The notes beneath the pieces were generated by a model. The model did not search any database and was not told the DNA's origin. It worked only from the letters and a program-made list of their open reading frames with translations. Shown one piece after another: positions 13,550 through 61,289 of a stretch of 64,000 nucleotides of DNA (position 1 is its first letter; every line of letters begins with the position of its first letter). A program made the position numbers and the translations under genes. This DNA is from Octopus vulgaris (lineage: Eukaryota), in the NCBI GenBank assembly GCA_951406725.2, contig OX597817.1:90830001-90894000 (forward strand), in the 5' to 3' direction.

Positions 13550-15220
13550 GTAGTACTCACTATATTTAGTTGACGTTGTAGGTATTTAATAACAAATTGA
13601 CTCAGCTCTACATTATTTAAGGCTTCATAAGCATAGAACATGTTCTCATCATGAAATGTATGGATACATTAAAAGAAATTTTAAATGGCTGCTAGGTGAG
13701 ATTATTAAAGCTTTTATGGATCAGTTCATGTCATGTAGGTATTTTAATTAATTTAGTGACAACAGTTTAGTCATTGCATGCTTCATATAGCCAAGCACAC
13801 AAAAAGCTTATGTCAGATAGTTGCCATTCTGTAGGGTATGCTATTTCAACAAAATAGTTCTCACATTACATGCACTGCATAATAGAACAGACAACATGTT
13901 AACATTGGTTAGTTAGCATTCTATAAGGCATGACATTTCAGTGATAACAGTTAGCATTCTAGAAAAATAACTGGTTTCATGGTATCAAGTTGTTTCAGTT
14001 TGCATGACATGCAACACTGACAAATGATAATAGGTTGTAATCTCTTTGTGAACAGCAGGGACTATATATATACTGCTATTCAGCTAGACCTAGGGTGGTA
14101 TTCCTGGGTCATTAGTGGCCAACATTTTGAAGTTCATTAACGAGGTGTGCCTCTAATGACAACCATAGGATAGGTTGATTTCCTTATTTATGGATGCTGC
14201 AAACTACTGGAATATCTGAAGTTCCCCATGGTTGTAGAGTTGGCAGTTTTGAGCTCTAGCTGATTAAAGGAGGGCTTTGTGTAATGAGAAGACTGTATGG
14301 AGGCATATTAACTCATGTTTTAATGAGCAATGTGAGAAACAATAGCATCTAAACATGAGTAGCTGACTTTCATGTTATAAGAATTAAAGGGTTTATAATA
14401 TCAATGGGTTCTTAGGAAATATTGTCAAATTGGTGTCAGTATGGGTAACCTAGTATATAACAATTTGACATACCACAGAAAGGTAGAGATAGCTTAGTAT
14501 TGAAGATGGAGAAATGCATAAATTTATCATGATAGTTAACTTACTAATACTCAAATTGAAATAATAGTTGTAATGATGAACCTGTATTGAAATCAGTTTT
14601 GCTTTCCTGTTGTAGTGCTGACCTACTCTAATTCTCTGTCAGCAGAAGATTCTAGTTTTCTCATCATTCCATATCAAAAAGGCAACCATTATGATATATA
14701 TGAATTCTTGAGAAATATTGTCTAATTAGAGGGAACATCTAGAATTAAATGAAGGATTAAACCAGATTACCTTTCTATTTCTAACTCTCTCTGAGTTTTG
14801 AGAGTAGGTTATCCTTCAAAATAGCAGTGAAGTTATGCCTTACTACTGCCTTATCATAAGTTGGGGTGATGGTGACTCTGTTGAAGATCTGCATGTCAGC
14901 AGAGAAATTAGAGATTTTTTTGCTACTACCTGTGACTAGGTTTCTAATTATAGTTGAAGTGTGATTGAAGTGACAATGAATATAAACACTTTCCTTTTTG
15001 TAGTGGTGGTACAAGCTTGTGTCAAGGTCTATGGTTTCATCCAGGAGGTTGATCTTCAGTAAGGTGGTGGTAGCAATGGAAATTAGGTCAAATGCTTTGA
15101 AGATATTCGTAAGATTCTTTCTAAACATATTTATGGTATGGGCTGTTCATATATCTTGTGAATGCCAAGCCATCATCTCTGTACAGGACTGAACTGTAGA
15201 GATGTTTACATCGACTGAAT
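13550..15220 (-). mobile_element. Decayed Penelope-like element (RT plus probable GIY-YIG remnant)
   Basis: The minus strand gives LYRDDGL (about 15165-15187), INLLDETIDL...Y..YKK..VYIHCHFNH..TIIRNL and KVSYSC (about 14352-14371). These are typical Penelope/Poseidon-group RT and linker motifs. Confidence 0.75.
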
Positions 15221-18125: not shown

Positions 18126-19949
18126 CAATATTTTAATTAACACATGCACATGTAATTATACATAGATTTGATATTCTTTTATTCTTTTACTTGTTTTAAT
18201 CATTGGAGAGCAACCACTAGGGTACCACTTCAAAGGGCTTTAGTTGCTTAATTGATCCCATTACTAATTTTAAGAATGGTAATTCTTTTTCTCTTTCTTC
18301 TCAAATATATGAATGTAAATCAACTTTACACTGGTTGCCAAGCAGTAGGAGTTAAATACAAAGACACACACACACACACATACACACACACATGACCATA
18401 TGATATTGCATACACTATTCTGTATTAATAAAAACAAAATTCTGTCTGTCTATCTGGGACCCTTTGTATCTGTCTACATTTGCTCTATATAGACATATAA
18501 TACTCTTTTGGAATCAGGATGATCCCAGGATTGAAAATCTGCCCTTCATTAGGTTCGTGAACATCCAGCATTGGGATCTGGTTTAAAAGATTTTGGGTTG
18601 TTTTTTCTAGCAAGTAAAGCTTGGCTGATTCACACCATCTTGCTTGGCATTTTACAGATGACATCAGAGATCAAGGGGGAGGTAAATGGCATTCACTTTG
18701 TTAATTTTACATTATACATATATACATATATATATATACACATATACATATACATATATACATATACATATATTGTGAACAGTTATGAATGGACTTTGAC
18801 AAATAAACAAGTGAGTGATTGTTTAACCAGGACAGTAAACAAATGAGTGATTAGTAATTTAGATAGTTAACCAATTGACTAACAATAAAGAAGTGATATT
18901 CAACCAGTGCATGTGTTATTATTATTGGTGTAATGACCTTCCCAAGAGACCATAAGATTCGTTTGTCTAATAACCCTCCTATGAGACCACAAGATTTGTG
19001 TGTGTATACACACACACACAACATATATAGTTCTTGGCAATAGGACACAGTGTAACAAAAGGGGTAACTTGGTATTTAACAATACGACAGAGGTACAGAT
19101 AGTTTAGTATTTAAGATGGGGAAATACCAACCTCTTATAAATTTGTCATGATAATTAACTTACTAAATCTCAAACGAAAATAGCAATTGTAATGATGAAC
19201 CTGTATTGAAATCAATCTTATCTTCCTACTGTAGTACTGACCTACTCTAATTCTGTCAGCAGAAGATTCTAGTTTTCTTATCATTCTGTATCTAAAAGAC
19301 AACCATTATACCCAAAATGATAAAAAAAGAACAAAGTAAAACTAACTGAGAAAAGAATCGAACATACCAAAGTAGATAATGATAAAAACTGAAAATAGAT
19401 GAAAAAAAAACTTTTGTGTCTATTATTATTATTAAAGAAATCATTATATAAATAAAAGAAATCATTATTATTATCATCATCATCATCTACCATTGCACTA
19501 GAAATAGAGAAAAAAATAATCAGCCAATGCGAAGGCTTATAATATATTGGTGCGGGATTATTGATCTGCAGTAGATCTGCTGAGATTGGTTGGTTGAAGT
19601 GTTTTTTCATCAGTGAAGTACCAAGAGAAGATTATTGTAATTTTTGGCAACTGTGCCAAATGCAGAATTATCTCTATGTAGCAGCATGATATAGGCTGTT
19701 GTGGTAGCTGAAATATACCTTTATTGAATTTGTTGGGAGTGCGTGTGTGTGTGTATATATATATATTTAAAGTTACTTATATCTATCTTCTTTCCAGCTA
19801 CTCCTATCCACTCCGACATAATGTGAGGAAGCCATGTATCTCTTCTACAGCAAGATACTTGTGTTTGTCTGCCTATCATACTTTAGCATCTCAACACTTG
19901 GCATAAAGTCACCTCCTATTATGTGGCTGCTTCTTTTCCTTTAGCAAGT

Positions 19950-42961: not shown

Positions 42962-43870
42962 GTACATATGTGTATGTGTGTGTATGTGAATGTGTGTAAG
43001 ACTTACTATCTCTATCTTGAATCTCTGTCCCACAATTCTCCATTTCTTTCAACTCTCTCAACATTTGTCTTCATGTGGAAGTCCTATCACGTCACTGGTA
43101 TCATAACCAAAAGTGAATAGTGATGGAAATAATATAGATATGTTACAGAAATACAAACATACACAGGTCTTTCACATGTACAAACACAGTTGTTCAGCAT
43201 TTCTACATAGATACATATCTTCTTCCTATATGCGCGCGCACACACACACACACACACACACAAGCTCTCACACGCTTCTGTTCAAAAAACAAAATTTCTC
43301 ATCTAATCTTCAACAATCTCCGTTTAACAGAAATGAAACCTTGACTTGTGATTTTAACCATTTTCAGAAGACATGGAAATGTTGATAATCATTTCAGTCT
43401 TAGAATGATCCAAATTTTACAATACCAATGATTAATCTAACACTTAAAGTGTAAATCTGGAATCTTCAGCTTCATTATCATAGCACTAAAATTTGTAGAA
43501 CATTAAGAATAATAAATAATTAAAACATCATTACTTAAATACTTTGCTTTTGGTTTTTAGTCACTGATAACATCTCGCTTATTGCAATAACATAATTAAT
43601 AATGACAGAAGCAGTATTAATACCAAAATATAATATTAATCCCAATTTAGAAGTGGATGTTGTGTAAGAACACGGAATACTGCATTAGTTACCCAAAGAG
43701 AACCTTTCATATGGAATGGCACAAATTATCACTCATGTTTATAACGCTAGTGGGAGATAATCATGCACCATCACTGCCAAGAGTACCAGATCACATGATT
43801 TCAACTCTCCTTGGCTTTGTCAATAGTAGATACCCAAAGCTAAGGTAGCAGCAATAAGTATAGAATCTTC

Positions 43871-45256
43871 ATAATCAACAACAATGATGAAAAGAAATGG
43901 GGCGAGTGTGTCTCCCTGCAGTATTCCAGCTTTGATTGAGAAAGATGATGTTTCTCCGTCAGGGGTTAAGATGGTTGAAGACGTATCTGTGTAGAGGACC
44001 TTGATGGCAGAAATGATTTTGTCTGGTATCACATAGAGCTTAAGGATTTCAAACATCTTGTACCTATCTACAGAATCGAACGCTTTAGAAAAGTCTACAA
44101 ATACCATTGCAAGATTGTGATTAAATGCTTTTGATTCTTTAATAAGTCTGCGTAGGCATAGTATCTGGCTCAGCGTTGAGCGCCCATGTCTGAATCCATT
44201 TTGGTTCTTTCGGAGCAAAGGTTCAACAAAAAGGACAAGACGATTTAGGATCAGTTTGTTGTACAGTTTTGCAGCAATTGACATTAGAGATATACCCCTG
44301 TAGTTGGTGACGAGGGATAAATCGCCTTTTTTGGGTCAAAGCCGGAATACTGCAGGGAGACACACTCGCCCCATTTCTTTTCATCATTGTTGTTGATTAT
44401 GTGCTACGTATGTCAGTTGATACCATCTCTGGCAAGGGCTTTGAAATAAAACCAAGAAGTTCCAGACACCCAGCTGAGTACTTGACAGACACTGACTTTG
44501 CTGACGACATCGTTCTTATCAGTGATTCTCTCTCCAATGCCCAGTCTCTTTTACAATCTCTTGAACAAGCCTCAAATTGTGTAGGTCTTTACCTCAATGA
44601 GGCCAAGACTGAATACATAAACAAGTGTCTGTCCAACAGTGATTGCATCATCCATACTCTCAACAATGCGCCCTTAAATATGGTTTCTGATTACAAATAT
44701 CTTGGGTCATACATATCATCATCTGGAAATGACTTTCTAACTAGAAAGGGTATAAGATCTGGTAATGACATGCATAAGATCTGGTCATCAAATCTAAGTA
44801 GAGACTTCAAACTTGAAATCTTCAAAGCCACAGTCGAACCAATTCTACTATATGGCTCAGAAACCTGGACGTTATCAAAGAAGCTTGAGAGGTGGTTGGA
44901 TGGAACCTACACTCGCCTCCTTATGAGAGATCAAAATCTCTCGTGGAAGTGCCATCCAACCAAAATGCAAATATATGGGAAACTACCACCTGTGTCATCT
45001 CTTGTGAAAGGTAAGAGAGTCCAGTTTGCTGGACATTGTTGTAGAGCTGAAAAAGAGGTAAATTCTACTCTTCTCCTCTGGAAGCCATCTACTCGCAATA
45101 CCAGAGGGCGCACACTCTCCTACCCTGATGTAATCTCCAGGGATACAGACATCCAGCAACAGGACCTCCGTAATGCCATGATGGACCGTGAAGTCTGGTA
45201 AATTCCAGCATGGTAAATTCCATTGTCTCGACCACGGTTGAACAATGATGATGATG
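43871..45256 (+). mobile_element. Young RTE LINE insertion with 5' inversion and 11-bp TSD
   Basis: The inverted segment 43871-44335 reads PKKGDLSLVTNYRGISLMS...QNGFR...FVDFSKAFDSV...GILQGDTLAP. The sense segment 44336-45256 reads GILQGDTLAP...DFADD...YKYLGS...LLYGSETW...FAGHC and ends in (ATG)n. The TSD atagaatcttc is at 43860-43870 and 45257-45267. Confidence 0.95.
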
Positions 45257-49190: not shown

Positions 49191-49863
49191 ACAATGTTAG
49201 CTGTGGCTCAGCTGCATCAGTGTACACATTTTCTGCTCTTTAGTCCAAAAAAGGGGATGACCAGGTTGCCAAAATGAATTTTCTTTCACAACAGCAGCAA
49301 CAAAATATTTTGCTTTTTGAACTATATATTCACCTGCAGTATAAAAGAGGGTTTGCATTTCTGGCCAGCATGTCTGAAGAGGCATTGACAAGTGAAATAG
49401 GTGTGAAAGAGTTGCAGTTATATGCCATAACCAAGAATATATTTCTCAACACCATGAGAGAATATACATATGTATAACACACACAAACATAGATGCATAT
49501 TTATCTATCTTCATGTGTATGTGTGTATACATACATATATATATAGTTCAAATTTAGAGAAAAACAAAGATGAAGACAAGAAAGTGTATTAATTTGACAC
49601 TTGGGAAAAATGGAAATGTCTTTTACATTTCGAACCTGCACTCTTCGACGGAAAAGAATAAGAGGAAATAGAAAGTGAATGAAAAATCTGTGTTGAGTTT
49701 TGGTTGTCCAATATCTATCTCTGTATGTATGTGTGTGTGTATATATATATATATACATACATATATATATATATATATGTAGGTCCTGGGTTGAGTCGGG
49801 GTTAACCACAGTAAATAAGGTACTCAATACATAGCAGAGTAAATTAATTTATTTTATAGAAGG

Positions 49864-49914
49864 AACTTCTACAGGACTAGAACTGTTTCATTCAAATGAA
49901 ATCATCAGGAAGCT
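49864..49914 (-). ncRNA. Type I hammerhead ribozyme fold (left arm)
   Basis: AGCUUC-CUGAUGA-U.UUC(AUUU)GAA.U-GAAA-CAG(UUCUAGUC)CUG-U-A/GAAGUU. The core is intact and stems I-III can form. Confidence 0.75.
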
Positions 49915-50105
49915 TGCTGTCAAAATAAGTTTTGGCATTTATACATTTAGGCAGGTTTAATGGGGTGGTGGTGGGGGACATTTTTTGGGTAAGCAGGGCA
50001 CAAACTGTCTTTCTTAGGGGAGTGGTCAAAAGAATCAGTGATAAAGTAAATAAATGAATAAATAGAATAATTGAATAGAGTTTTAGGTAAATAAGAAGAC
50101 TATCG

Positions 50106-50145
<40 letters not shown>

Positions 50146-51006
50146 TACATACACATACATACACACACATACACATACATACACACACACATATATATAC
50201 ATACACACATATATACAAATACACATACACATACATGCCAACACGCAAACACACGCACACATATATCTACACATATATAAATAAATATATACACCCATAC
50301 ACACACACATATATATATATGTATATATACATACATATACACACACATTTTTATATACATATATACACACATATATATACACACATATATATATATATAC
50401 ATATATACACACATACATATATATATATATACATATATACACACATACATATACTCATATATATATATACATATATACACACACATACATATACTCATAC
50501 ATACACACATGTGTGTGTATGTATGAGTATATATATATGTGTGTGTATATATGTGTGTATATATATGTGTGTATATATGTATATAAAAATGTGTGTGTAT
50601 ATGTATATATACATATATATATATGTGTGTGTGTATGGGTGTGTATATTTATTTGTATATGTGTAGATATATGTGTGCATGTGTTTGCATGTTGGCATGT
50701 ATGTGTATGTGTATTTGTATATATGTGTATGTATATATATGTGTGTGTATATGTATGTGTATGTGTGTGTATGTATGTGTATGTATATATGTGTATATAT
50801 ATATATATATATAAGCGATAGTCTTCTTATTTACCTAAAACTCTATTCAATTATTCTATTTATTCATTTATTTACTTCATCACTGATTCTTTTGACCACT
50901 CCCCTAAGAAAGACAGTTTGTGCCCTGCTTACCCAAAAAATGTCCCCCACCACCACCCCATTAAACCTGCCTAAATGTATAAATGCCAAAACTTATTTTG
51001 ACAGCA

Positions 51007-51057
51007 AGCTTCCTGATGATTTCATTTGAATGAAACAGTTCTAGTCCTGTAGAGGCT
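51007..51057 (+). ncRNA. Type I hammerhead ribozyme fold (right arm)
   Basis: AGCUUC-CUGAUGA-U.UUC(AUUU)GAA.U-GAAA-CAG(UUCUAGUC)CUG-U-A/GAGGCU, with predicted cleavage after A51051. Confidence 0.75.
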
Positions 51058-51323
51058 CCTTCTATAAAATAAATATATATATATATATATAATGTTAATA
51101 ATAAGGAGGATGGAGATTTGTACATCGATAATTCAGTTTACAGTCATACACAGCATATTACCATGACTTATATGTGTTTGCACTGCAACTGTACACCATT
51201 GCAGATGCAACCTTGCAACAATGTCAGTGCAGTTTCATCAGGGTCTGTATATTAGATCCACTTTGAATTAAACTCTGCTCACAGAGCAAATACAGTATCC
51301 ACCTGGATAATGTATCCCTGCAA

Positions 51324-52899: not shown

Positions 52900-55800
52900 A
52901 CACACTCATAGCCTCAGTGTGCCATATTATTAGATATTGTGTCTGACTCTCTCATACATAGATCATCATCATCTGTTAAGGTCAGTTCTCCATTCTGGCA
53001 TGAGTTGGATGGTTTGCCACCTCTCCTCTTCAACATATTCAAGCACAGCATTAGCAATCAGTCTCTGTTCATCAGTAAGTGTTGCAATGCCTGGATGATT
53101 GAGGTCTTCATGATGGCCAAGATGCAGTACTCCAATAAGTTCAGGCAGCCCAATTGCTAAACAATTAATGCCATTATCTATCAGAATTGCATCAATTGAG
53201 TGCAGTGCCATGTTTTCTGTGTGTTCTGCATTAAAACCTTGGTGCAAGATATCTTCAATCATGGATTCCTTGTAAGTGGTCTACAGGTGAAGAGCATTTG
53301 CAGAGTTCATATACATGCACAGGGCAGCAAACATAACATGCAACTGTAAGGGCATCCGACAGGCAGCAGCTTCTAGCAATGCATGTTCCAGTGTGTCATC
53401 ATTTGAGAGAAGACCATATCTCAGGCATGCTGCCTTAACTATTGGCAAGATTTCTCCTTCTACAGTGTGCAAATCCTGGAAGTTCATGGCGCCTGAAACA
53501 TGCAGCAGCAACATTCACAAGTGAATTTTTTCTGTGTCTCTAGGGCTCACTGTATACATTCTACTGATGATATTAGTATTCCTTTGCCTTGATGTCCATG
53601 TTCTAGTGCGCTCATTAAACACATAACACAGCGGAATGTCAGTGTGGAAGTGGTTCCTTGCATCATCATTGTCAAGCTCATTCAGTTTGAACCATGCAGT
53701 GAGGGTAGTGTCATGGTCCCTCTCTGCTTGAGCAGCTTGCTGAGTGCTGTCTCTGTGAAAGTAAACTCTTTGCTGGCCTTCAAGATGTACTGCAAGTCTG
53801 TAGACAGTGTGAGATGCATCAGGTAGCTTGAACTCTGACAGTTTCCACATAGCTTCCAGAGAAGAAACATATCGGCAAGCAAGATAATTAGTAATTTCAT
53901 TGTGAGCTTGATTCTGCTTATGATCCGCTACTGTCTCTTACTTCAACAGAAGCACAGTTATGTCCCTTGTACATGTATTTGAAGATATATTTAAGGCTTT
54001 TCACGGATAAACAAATTTCTACATTAATGTGAGCTCTGGGCTTTTTCAATAGGTAGGCACTGTATGGCACAACGTTCCTGTTGTCAACTGAGTGATGTCA
54101 AACTTGAGCTGTGATTCCAGTATAGCATCTTCTGTACTCTAGATAGCTATTCAAATTCAGAAGCATTTCATCTCTGTAGTTCTTTGGGAATTTCTTTTGA
54201 TATGAACCATTTTCCATGCAAGGGGAGGAAGGATTATCTGTTCCACAAGGGCCATGTGTCATGCATTTTTTTTCTAAATCATGCAAGAGTGGATCATCAT
54301 TGGCATCAGGGATTTCAGCTGTCACGATCCTATCTATGTCATCACTGTTTCTGAGTTTGTCCTCGTTTCTCAACACTACCAACATGTGGCAGTGGGGAAG
54401 ACCTCTCTTCTGAAACTCAATGACATGGACATGAGCCACTGGCACTGCAAAAATGTGTCTATCCTTTATGTCCCTCATAAGTTCTGCAAGGTGTGACTTC
54501 TGCACTCGGGCAACTAAATCTGGCCTATGTTCAGGTGTTTCATTTTGCTGTAGATTATCAACTATCTCAAGGCACTTCAAATTGCAAGTGTAAGGGATGA
54601 ACAAATCTAGCTTAGCACATTTTGAAACAATTAACATGACATCCTGAAAATATTAGTGCATATTCTTTGGACTGCCTGTGAATGAGGAAGGCAGTATCAC
54701 TTGCACTCCTGGTTCAATATTCTCATCTACTCCTGTGTTCAAATAGTCCATCAATCTGTTGTACCTTTTCACTCACAACTAGGTTGGATTGTTCCTAAGA
54801 TATTGCAACCTGCAATCTTCAACCTTGACATATACATCTACAACATACTATTGAAATAATTTTTCAGCTCTATGAATAACACTAAGCCCATCTCTGAATG
54901 TCAGACGATAGCTGTAGTATTCTTGCACTGTCAGACGATTACGCACACATGTCTGGTGTTCCTCAACATGTTGCATCTCAAAATGCCATCCAAATTCCCA
55001 TGGGGAAACAGAATTGGGTAGCTCATAGTGTCAAGTGGCACGACGAGTAAATTATTTTTTTCAGGAGGAGCATCTCTGGAATGCACAATAATGTCTCTAT
55101 TTTCAGGAGGGGCACCAATTTTCTCCAGCAAACATTGTTGCTATTTCATTGCTGATAGGGAAATTGTAGCGTCTAATATCGGATCCTCTCCTGAAACGTA
55201 ACTCAAGTCTCCATATTGGCACGTTGTCTCTTCTGGCTCTCTCCTCTCCTTATTTAACTGCATGCATTTTCTTGTACAATTCTGCATAAGGATTAATTTG
55301 GTGGATAACAACACTTATTTTTCTCATAGTAACAGGGGAACACTCAGAATTTTGAGGTGCATCCATCCTGTGCTGCAGAGCTTCATCCGCATCAATGATG
55401 TATAACTGGCAGTATTGCAGTTGAGCATTAGCAGGATGTAGGTTTGTCATTGTGTGGTTAGTTTGGCCCTGAATGCAGAAGCAATATGGATCCCTTCCTG
55501 GAAGTGCTTCAAGTTTGACTCCAAATGACGCAAAGGAGAAGGTACAATTGTAATTTCTGATATTTCTACGGAATGAAATAAACTCTTGATCAATTCCCTC
55601 AAATAAATTTTTGAGTGTCTCTTGATATGGTTGCAGTGCAGGTATGTTCACTTTTCCATTGAGGCAACAACTGTTATTTTCATTTCTAAACCTAAGCGCA
55701 CCACAGTATTCACATATAATGTTCATTTCTCCTCTGTTAAATTGTTCAGCACTGGCCTATGTCTTCTCACATACTGTCGCTGTATCTGATGCCTCCTTAA

Positions 55801-57375: not shown

Positions 57376-58091
57376 TGAAGTCTTGCAGTGGTTCAGTCAG
57401 GACATACAATGTGTGCGTCTGGAGCATTTTAAATCTTCTTGAGCCACACTCCAGATTAACACACAACAAACTAGTATTCACGAATCAAAATGCAAAGAGC
57501 AACAAGAGGAATGTAAAGCATCTGACACTTCCCAGGGGCTTAGTTTTAGGAGTGTCAGCTCTGCTTGACAGATAGAGGAAGACCAGGGTCAAGAAGCACA
57601 CCACAATGCCCAGAGCCTCTCTGCTCAACTCACTCAATGTACAAAAAGAGTGGATGAACTTGAAAGCCCCAAAGGCTTCAAGAAGAAACCACTGCTGAAT
57701 TTGTCATCAGTGATAGATCTAAGAAAGCCATCAAGGAGATAGGCTTGGTAGTTCAAACTAGCTCAAGGTAGCAATGGTTAATAAGAGACTTCAAGTGGAA
57801 CCTTTCCAACAATGAAAACGAGTTCAGTCCTCCCTATCCAACTCAGGCAAAGCATACAAGTTGAGAGGTGAAAGGCTTGTGACCTTGAGATTTCTGATGA
57901 TACAAAAGGGCTTCCAGCTTTGTGATGGATTTAGAAGAGCACCTTTAATTTATATTATAATAAAACGGTAAACTAGTTATCCTGTTTTATTCAGCCCTCA
58001 TATATATATATAAATATATACCACAGTGAAAATATAAGTGTGAAACAAGGTGGAAAAAAGAGTACTCAAATACCAGGGGCAGAGTAATATG

Positions 58092-58201
<110 letters not shown>

Positions 58202-60001: not shown

Positions 60002-61289
60002 CAGCAATATTGTGTATTACAGATTTTGAGAGATCATTCACTATATTGCTTTCCCTAGAAATAGTGGATGATTGAGTGTGGGACTAGCAAGCTTTTATGA
60101 TAGAAAAGCTGATACAATGCAAAGATAGACCAATGTGTAGTACAGCACAGAATAGCAATGACAATATAATATAAAAATAGCATAATATAAAATATATAAC
60201 TTTCTTTAAAGCTCTAATATATGAACATTATTTACAATCCACTCTCCACTATATTGGATTTCTCAAATGGTTAAATAATACATTAAGAAACATAAGGTGA
60301 GATAAAAATATTAGAGAATGAGTTGAGTTCATATATTTTCTCTCTCTAATTTATTTTGAGATTTTAGATCAATACTTAATCTCAAATTGCTTATAGATTC
60401 TTGATTTGAGTATCAGTTTGGGGGCTAATCAAATTGATATTCAAACTAATCAGTTTATTTTCAATTAACTATAAGAGGACTTCATTTTTCAAAATACAAT
60501 CAGCCTTACTGATTTAGAACAGAAAAACAGAAATCAAATTAGTATAACGAAGCATATATGAATATATACATATATACACAACACACACATAAATATATAC
60601 ACATATATACATACATGCATACAAATATGTATATATATACACACAAACACACATATGCACATACATACAAATATATATTCACACACACACATATCAGTAT
60701 TTGTGTATGTGTATTTATGTGCGTGTTTATATATGCACACATGTACACATTGTAATAATGCACAAACCAGGATTGGGCAGAAACTCAGTGTATTCTTAAC
60801 ACACTATTCAGCATTAATTCCTGAGTATCTACATCCTTATACTGGAACTTAGAAAATAATTACAAGTCCACTGGTGCAGGAACCTATAGTATCTTAATAG
60901 TAAAGCTAATGCTTAAGTATTTCAAACGGTAACATGTAAAATAAAGAGAAAAAAAAAGAGTAAATTTAGCATAACTTTAACATGAGTTACAATTGTTTCT
61001 GTAGCATTCTGTTTCAAACCACATTGCATGTAAAAGATTCCATGTGAAAAATTATCACAATATGCATGATTTAATATGCTGGAGTAGCATTTCTAGCATT
61101 AAGAGATATGATTTAATATTAATCTGATAACATGTCACTTCAGCATAATGAATCAAGCATATTGCATAATCTTTCACACAGGATACTTTACATGTAATGT
61201 GGTTAGAAAGGGAGTCATAGAGAAGCAATTGTAATGAATATCAAAATTATGCTAAATTCACACACACACACACACACACACACACGTGA

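Follow-up and report, generated by a model that had tools for sequence, protein, structure and literature searches.

Two hammerhead motifs lie near the outer ends of an inverted pair

The window (the whole 64-kb stretch of DNA analysed here) has about 35% GC, is animal-like and contains many microsatellites and decayed transposons. It holds two type I hammerhead motifs on opposite strands, one towards each outer end of an inverted pair whose ~600-bp arms are arranged head to head (49847-51074). The features of the locus are the following, with ends given as nucleotides after the predicted cleavage site (cut+n):

49740-49778, no strand: (TA)n of the left flank, likely half of the target site
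49779-50509, minus strand: left arm, comprising the right-arm sequence plus a tail and ending at cut+91
49779-49846, minus strand: tail of 68 nt, part of the element, present on the left arm only and covered by contigs of 4/4 public runs
49820-49840, minus strand: tail hairpin with a 4-bp outer stem, a 2-nt 3' bulge and a short inner stem, starting at cut+29
49864-49914, minus strand: left copy of the type I hammerhead, mirror of the right copy
50108-50813, no strand: (TA/TG)n simple-repeat interior, common to both arms in detail
50489-50532, no strand: centre of symmetry, with exact 21-bp inverted arms and 2 nt between them, within the simple repeat
50512-51074, plus strand: right arm, comprising the simple-repeat part, ~195 nt of unique non-coding sequence and the hammerhead, ending tail-less at cut+23
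51007-51057, plus strand: right copy of the type I hammerhead, with a predicted cut after 51051
51007-51012 / 51052-51057, plus strand: stem I, 6 bp
51013-51019, plus strand: CUGAUGA core
51020 and 51031, plus strand: U10.1 and U11.1
51021-51023 / 51028-51030, plus strand: stem II (UUC/GAA), 3 bp, loop AUUU
51032-51035, plus strand: GAAA
51035-51038 / 51047-51050, plus strand: stem III (ACAG/CUGU), 4 bp, with an 8-nt loop holding CUAG
51049-51051, plus strand: GUA triplet, predicted cleavage 3' of 51051
51074-51091, no strand: (TA)9 of the right flank, likely the remaining half of that target site

Elsewhere in the window, an RT-bearing LINE is found at 43820-45201 in two opposite halves, as expected from 5' inversion, with an inverted overlap of 66 bp that is 98% identical (43870-43935 / 44336-44401). 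A Helitron remnant occupies 53515-55756 on the minus strand (Helitron_like_N, E 9.5e-23), and a MITE-like imperfect palindrome of 300 bp (74%) occupies 60960-61261.

The CUGAUGA/GAAA core, the ACAG/CUGU stem III, the CUAG in its loop and the GUA triplet, all reported by the initial annotation, were recovered at the positions listed above, and the 3-bp stem II closed by U-U is present in both copies. The core is that of a full type I hammerhead (C3 U4 G5 A6 N7 G8 A9, G12 A13 A14, A15.1-U16.1, H17), and the helices comprise 6, 3 (plus U.U) and 4 bp, stem I being open-ended. With an intact core, three helices and a U.U closure, the motif is a variant type I hammerhead, as had been proposed. A descriptor scan of both strands of the window, requiring at least 6 bp in stem I and at least 3 bp in each of stems II and III, returned the right and the left copy only. 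None of 150 block-wise dinucleotide shuffles yielded the motif at this stringency, and looser hammerhead descriptors gave a mean of 0.02-0.06 matches per shuffle. The hammerhead motif at 51007-51057 is confirmed as real.

The check with hammerhead covariance models that had been suggested for it came out negative. The Rfam scan of the window returned no family at the gathering score, the Rfam hammerhead models gave no match to 50960-51073 at a threshold of E ≤ 10, and only simple-repeat miRNA noise appeared at 49700-51200. Of seven further loci that share this stem II, one alone (L040) matched an Rfam hammerhead model, below the gathering score; the Rfam hammerhead models thus miss the UUC/GAA U.U form. 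The folding energy of the motif is level with that of shuffled sequences (z 0.05 and 0.13).

The non-repetitive parts of the two arms are the same except at 3 of 261 positions (50878/50043, 51054/49867 and 51056/49865), an identity of 98.9%. The earlier count of three inter-arm substitutions, two of them in the 3' strand of stem I, holds for this part and not for the whole alignment, which has nine substitutions (columns 121-654), all transitions, and 16 gap columns. The left arm has, in addition, about 100 nt of simple-repeat units near the centre. For arms that started out identical in an octopus-like host, 3/261 would translate into a crude age of about 1.6 Myr with the rate given for octopus in PMC13282606. 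Both flanks of the pair are (TA)n, and they are not mirrored. Every reading frame of the arm is closed or lacks a Pfam match, and a comparison of five Hydra proteins with the window revealed no ORF of a Penelope-like element (PLE) near 49-52 kb. We have found no direct copy of the arm (pLTR or partial tandem) in the window, such a copy not being required for truncated insertions, and no head-to-tail tandem hammerhead units at the locus.

The repeat belongs to a family with two 3' ends

Part of the right arm is present in 20 of the 24 public runs listed, and at least half of its words occur in seven of them, from four organisms; the best-matching run may be the window's own source. Contigs matching 49785-50105 were collected from four of the 20 runs (5971, 1172, 227 and 175 contigs) and aligned, at a likeness of 80%, to the left arm together with the adjoining flank, variants being listed at 3% or more. 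Contig depth does not rank the parts of this stretch, and its differences along the stretch are not taken to reflect 5' truncation or copy number. The contigs show no RNA ends, no RNA run appears among those listed with the arm, and run X10, which may be RNA, entered as contigs and is uninformative on transcription.

The tail (49788-49846) is covered by contigs in all four runs. Among the loose ends listed, three of the runs have contigs that pass into (TA)n, with the transition at 49788 (48, 23 and 2 records), and other contigs end at 49843-49847 and then pass into (TA)n, like the right arm (among the 24 loose ends listed of 184). Two alternative 3' ends of the element, at cut+23 and cut+91, follow from this, and the inverted pair in the window carries one of each. 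No head-to-tail joint was present among the joints listed for the family contigs.

The contigs also gave the family state of stem I. The initial annotation had proposed GAAGCU as the ancestral 3' strand, around which both changes give G-U pairs (A>G at 51054, U.G; C>U at 49865, G.U), and this was borne out in the four runs: the position matching 49865 is C in 99.6-100% of the depth (112, 75, 38 and 20 contigs), and no variant is listed for 49867, so that the G of the right copy is absent from the listing. Because GAAGCU is the family state, the wobbles are private mutations and not covariation. Their reading as a sign of selection on stem I was not sustained, each being private to one arm and stem I having no family variant at 3% or more besides the window's own change at 49865. 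Two of three changes would fall at most 5 nt apart by chance in 11% of cases (0.13% for one named 6-nt window), and, by inspection, three of the six possible transitions on the 3' strand preserve a pair.

Within the 51-nt motif, four places vary at 3% or more, namely 49865 (the window's own change), N7 and two places in loop II. Two of the N7 and loop II variants have nearly equal shares (41/43, 42/43, 61/62 and 66/65%), so they probably reflect a single split into subfamilies, which leaves the nominal p of 0.014 for variation being confined to free positions weak. U10.1 and U11.1 have no variant among the family contigs, and the U.U closure is therefore a family trait. Variable places listed amount to 1/76 in the tail region vs. 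4/51 in the ribozyme; low variation is thus not specific to the ribozyme, as the tail is equally invariant.

Predicted fold and ribozyme competence

The initial annotation had considered the hammerhead possibly dimer-dependent. A stem III duplex is feasible, with a predicted energy of -12.8 kcal/mol for the dimer vs. -1.4 kcal/mol for the monomer hairpin, and all six Hydra stem III segments tested folded only as dimers in prediction. The part of the proposal that does not stand concerns the present locus, where a cis dimer of the left and right ribozymes is precluded by their location on opposite strands. The active fold lies 2.1 kcal/mol above the predicted minimum, and a register-shifted hairpin burying G12-A14 has a probability of 0.72 vs. 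0.02 for the active stem II. As regards a tertiary contact between loops I and II, a distal stem with an internal loop is predicted in the right copy, but its 5' strand falls in the family's most variable stretch (12/22 places). The right ribozyme would be wholly paired with the left arm in a read-through transcript, as predicted by folding. The two genomic copies, each with one private wobble, are likely passive relics.

Low activity was described for PLE hammerheads (PMC4209133), and one of nine elements cleaved in a retrozyme preprint (bioRxiv 10.64898/2026.07.22.740005). The view of the U-U closure as unusual found no support: U stands on both sides of stem II in 14 of the 25 Hydra-clade hammerhead families of PMC8557442 (File S2), the closure also occurs in axolotl HHR_Amex2, and it is described as tolerated in PMC3088659.

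The exact 24-nt core pattern was found in no metagenome contig. A relaxed pattern was matched 68 times over 65 metagenome loci, with eight complete hammerheads in four groups (null mean 0.49), and in seven loci of viral contigs, two of them complete. These matches lie in phage-like or unrelated animal contexts and have only the motif in common with the window; since they were chosen by the letters of stem II, all that can be learned from them is the recurrence of U.U-closed hammerheads. The shifted hairpin reaches a probability of 0.03-0.31 in six metagenome motifs, less than in the window. Complete U.U-closed UUC/GAA type I hammerheads lie between short phage-like ORFs in three sets of loci (L008, L054 and L057; L033, L069 and L072; L045), L054 having two copies 705 bp apart, and Rfam misses the phage-like ones tested. 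In L040 (1509-1580; also L047 and L051) a U.U-closed hammerhead resembles HH9 at 33 bits, below gathering, and is located about 470 nt downstream of an ORF, which we take to be scramblase-like.

The tail hairpin is common to the window and Hydra-clade 3' ends

A decayed, frameshifted RT remnant of a Hydra-clade PLE is located at 14678-15186 on the minus strand (tblastn E 1e-18 to P0004; no Pfam match), and this is the only place in the window matched by five Hydra proteins. It shows that the Hydra clade was once present in this genome. The remnant did not emerge as a partner of the repeat, no 3' end recognisably like that of the repeat being seen for it (local alignment score 37 vs. 44 on the wrong strand). 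A 250-bp repeat of 80% identity occurs at 14443-14692, directly downstream of the remnant, and at 19062-19309.

A phmmer search started from the remnant returned 209 proteins, and a word-index protein search with it returned nothing. The 11 Hydra proteins aligned have RWR/RWK and DKT, with the CxC..C linker in the three full-length ones; Pfam recognised none of the four Hydra proteins submitted to it, and the protein alignment found nothing in viral contigs. By protein alignment we have fetched 14 Hydra loci from five prokaryote-labelled assemblies, nine of them from a single assembly. Being animal-type with (TA)n flanks, these PLEs in bacteria-labelled assemblies are likely host DNA contamination (L073-L086). 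The loci gave 25 descriptor matches, 20 of them of Hydra type, of which five are U.U-closed and ten have a hairpin at cut+40 to +61.

This tail hairpin is common to the window and the Hydra-clade 3' ends, the window having A-U in place of the outer G-C. In the Hydra loci it takes the form GCUC-stem-loop-stem-UU-GAGC. Over 12 aligned Hydra hairpins, six pairs are kept in 98.5% of cells with eight two-sided changes, and none of 500 shuffles reached this level of pairing, a kind of test that relatedness inflates. The support for the hairpin amounts to four independent sources, because a single assembly contributed nine of the 14 loci. The whole tail of the window folds no better than shuffles (z -0.30), vs. 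z -2.28 for the hairpin alone. Tail length is 68 nt in the window, about 60 nt in the fetched Hydra loci and 30-40 bp in the PLE description of PMC8557442.

A covariance model built from the Hydra loci only (R1) placed 49810-49850 at the top of the window, with 17.3 bits and E 0.029, its training loci scoring far above this (26.9-44.3 bits). The model gave nine matches in the 128 kb searched; its calibration is rough, and its boundaries were chosen with the window's motif already in view. A hairpin pattern drawn up with the window's letters in view had one match and none in 100 shuffles, and does not count as a test. The joint alignment of hammerhead and tail was too poor for a model. The second R1 match (58052-58095, E 0.46) falls within a lone tail-like piece of ~85 nt at 58012-58096 on the minus strand, which has the same hairpin, lies between (TA)n runs and has no hammerhead upstream; it is probably the tail of a related family.

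Clear inverted pairs were present in two of the loci, L075 and L076 (n = 4), with the tail on one arm in three pairs, on neither arm in one and on both arms in none. In L075 the 758-bp arms are 100% identical, and there, as in two pairs of L076, the hairpin is on one arm. The tail-less arms of these loci end within a few bases of the hairpin start. The window has the same layout, with the hairpin on one arm and the other arm ending just before it. The tail hairpin likely marks the start of element copying. We have found no literature description of a tail hairpin in Hydra elements, and the term "stem-loop" is absent from the main text of PMC8557442.

Other arrangements of these ends were seen as well. 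Nested clusters of PLE ends, with up to seven hammerheads in 7 kb, occur in L076, L079, L081 and L082; the tail hairpin is doubled in succession in L074 (837-919) and L078 (2371-2477); and in L083 it is also found at the 5' end of the element, ahead of the ORF.

Origin of the inverted pair

The context that explains the motif went unmentioned in the initial annotation: the 3' end of what is probably a Penelope-like element, with its tail on one arm only. With a probability that we put at about 0.8, the locus represents the 3' end of a Hydra-type PLE, without an ORF, which inserted in the form of an inverted pair. The repeat would likely be a 5'-truncated or non-autonomous Hydra-type PLE. Inverted 5'-truncated copies, a one-sided tail of 30-40 bp and (TA)n targets have been described for PLEs (PMC8557442), and a PLE protein nicks and extends both strands of AT-rich DNA (PMC11167929). 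In the latter system two RT start sites bracket the tail, and hammerhead cleavage is protein-assisted and dispensable for insertion in vitro.

By analogy with PMC11167929, a Hydra RT/GIY-YIG protein acting in trans may bind the RNA near the tail hairpin and nick (TA)n on both strands. Reverse transcription could then begin at either of two alternative sites, the tail end (cut+91) or a site just before the hairpin (cut+23), and if each target strand were primed from a different site, the tail would be left on one arm only. The two 5'-truncated cDNAs would join in the simple repeat; a single cDNA folded back at its 5' end, or at the central hairpin, would fit equally. In the donor family the ribozyme might cut the precursor RNA after GUA, slowly and best as a dimer or with the help of protein.

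A more specific version would make the covarying tail hairpin the RT landing pad that sets both RT starts, so that one arm has the tail and the other stops before the hairpin. It would further hold that the genome carries a very abundant ORF-less parasite of the Hydra system, whose hammerhead gained an 8-nt loop III and thereby became able to cut as a monomer, and that the shifted stem II hairpin is an off state released by the RT protein. We offer this version tentatively and consider it somewhat doubtful.

Alternatively, one ordinary insertion might later have been copied in inverted orientation at the DNA level, by folding back or switching template within the simple repeat, the inversion then being uninformative on retrotransposition. 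The exact 21-bp hairpin around 2 nt at the centre would be compatible with such an event, as would the simple repeat shared by the arms in detail and the 98.9% identity of their unique part. What makes it unlikely is the end of the right arm, which coincides with the point where other family copies end before (TA)n and lies just before the hairpin, like the tail-less arms of L075 and L076; a random end would not be expected there.

The copies could also be dispersed monomers of a non-LTR retrozyme, with tandem units of 170-400 nt and circular RNA. The repeat is indeed non-coding, has a high copy number and carries a type I hammerhead, HHR_Amex2 has the U.U as well (PMC7229834), and the two readings overlap inasmuch as retrozymes have been proposed to be PLE derivatives (bioRxiv 10.64898/2026.07.22.740005). 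Yet there is no head-to-tail copy in the window and no such joint among those listed for the contigs, while the one-sided tail and the inversion are marks of PLE insertion, and we hold a retrozyme to be very improbable.

Even less weight is due to the idea that host selection keeps the ribozyme at this locus and is reflected in the wobbles. Pairing is preserved by both stem I changes, and a single 6-nt strand holds two of the three changes (p 0.0013 if that 6-nt window is named); selection would, however, lower the number of changes in stem I instead of raising it, each change is private to its arm, and a read-through RNA would form a ~600-bp duplex masking the ribozyme. A chance motif or an assembly fold-back artefact, to which the lack of an Rfam match and the shuffle-level folding energy might point, is most unlikely, since the motif arose in 0/150 shuffles, and the flanks lack mirror symmetry, nine positions distinguish the arms and both ends are typical of the family.

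For the preferred reading, insertion of a Hydra-type 3' end as an inverted pair, a hammerhead is only to be expected at such an end, and the value of the locus lies in the surrounding anatomy. How PLEs come to form inverted copies and one-sided tails has yet to be explained (PMC8557442, PMC11167929). The short, covarying hairpin, placed precisely at the point where copies lacking the tail stop, supplies a defined RNA target for mutation, the family, with its high copy number and two kinds of end, offers thousands of natural junctions to count, and the longer loop III provides a natural test of monomer vs. dimer cleavage.

Comparison with known systems

The repeat is most like the Hydra-clade PLEs of PMC8557442. 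Penelope-13_HM, Hydra-1_Amil, Hydra-2_Ajap and Hydra-1_Obim all have a type I hammerhead near the 3' end, as the repeat does at 23 and 91 nt from its two ends; the hammerhead of Hydra-1_Obim differs in sequence from that of the window. Insertion into (TA)n, the target of 26 of 27 Hydra families (PMC8557442), is seen at both flanks and at the loose ends of other copies. Penelope-13_HM shows, like the window, an inverted 5'-truncated copy with an antisense hammerhead, here giving inverted terminal repeats, and a tail hairpin can be made out by eye in Hydra-2_Amil and Hydra-2_Ajap. Unlike these elements, the window repeat has no ORF, has an A-U-rich stem II of 3 bp only and has a tail of 68 nt. 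The single ORF with RT and C-terminal GIY-YIG, RWK, DKT and CxCX5C is absent in cis, and the repeat is therefore a Hydra-type 3' end and not an autonomous member of the clade.

The ACAG/CUGU stem III occurs in 4 of the 25 families of File S2 (PMC8557442), in which loop III is never longer than 3 nt. Loop III has 8 nt in the window vs. 2-3 nt in the relatives, none of the 25 published and 20 fetched hammerheads reaching 8 nt; the spacing from GAAA to UH is, likewise, 14 nt vs. 7-8 nt in 20 copies from the Hydra loci. The family motif was not found in the PMC8557442 supplement, where line breaks could hide a match.

PAc, a Poseidon element of Anolis (PMC11167929), resembles the window in its terminal-repeat hammerhead, optional tail and AT-rich target. 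Its RT starts at cut+85-92 (111-118 minus 26), vs. cut+91 for the window's long end. PAc belongs to another clade, and its ORF begins inside the hammerhead, whereas the three frames of the window's hammerhead are closed.

In the axolotl retrozyme HHR_Amex2 (PMC7229834), likewise of type I, U.U forms the base of helix II, as in the window; it differs in its tandem 350-bp repeats, circular RNA and 2-bp helix III with a tetraloop. Its cleavage reached 22% in 1 h as a monomer and was better as a dimer (PMC7229834). The minimal PLE hammerheads of PMC4209133 share with the window their place in PLE terminal repeats and a palindromic stem III region, and Schistosoma has opposite-strand hammerhead pairs 100-700 bp apart (PMC4209133). 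They have G10.1-C11.1, with one more base following A9, and their helix II is long and their helix III nearly absent, whereas the window's U.U closure and 4-bp helix III with an 8-nt loop set it apart from the minimal form.

The giant squid genome paper mentions 235 hammerhead-1 matches, without detail, and the work of Lunse et al. on dimeric PLE hammerheads, as cited in the review PMC6765202, may cover similar variants. We have found no description of an octopus hammerhead repeat of this kind in the papers searched. U.U closure, hammerheads at PLE ends and inverted copies are thus already known; the 8-nt loop III and the tail hairpin are the new details.
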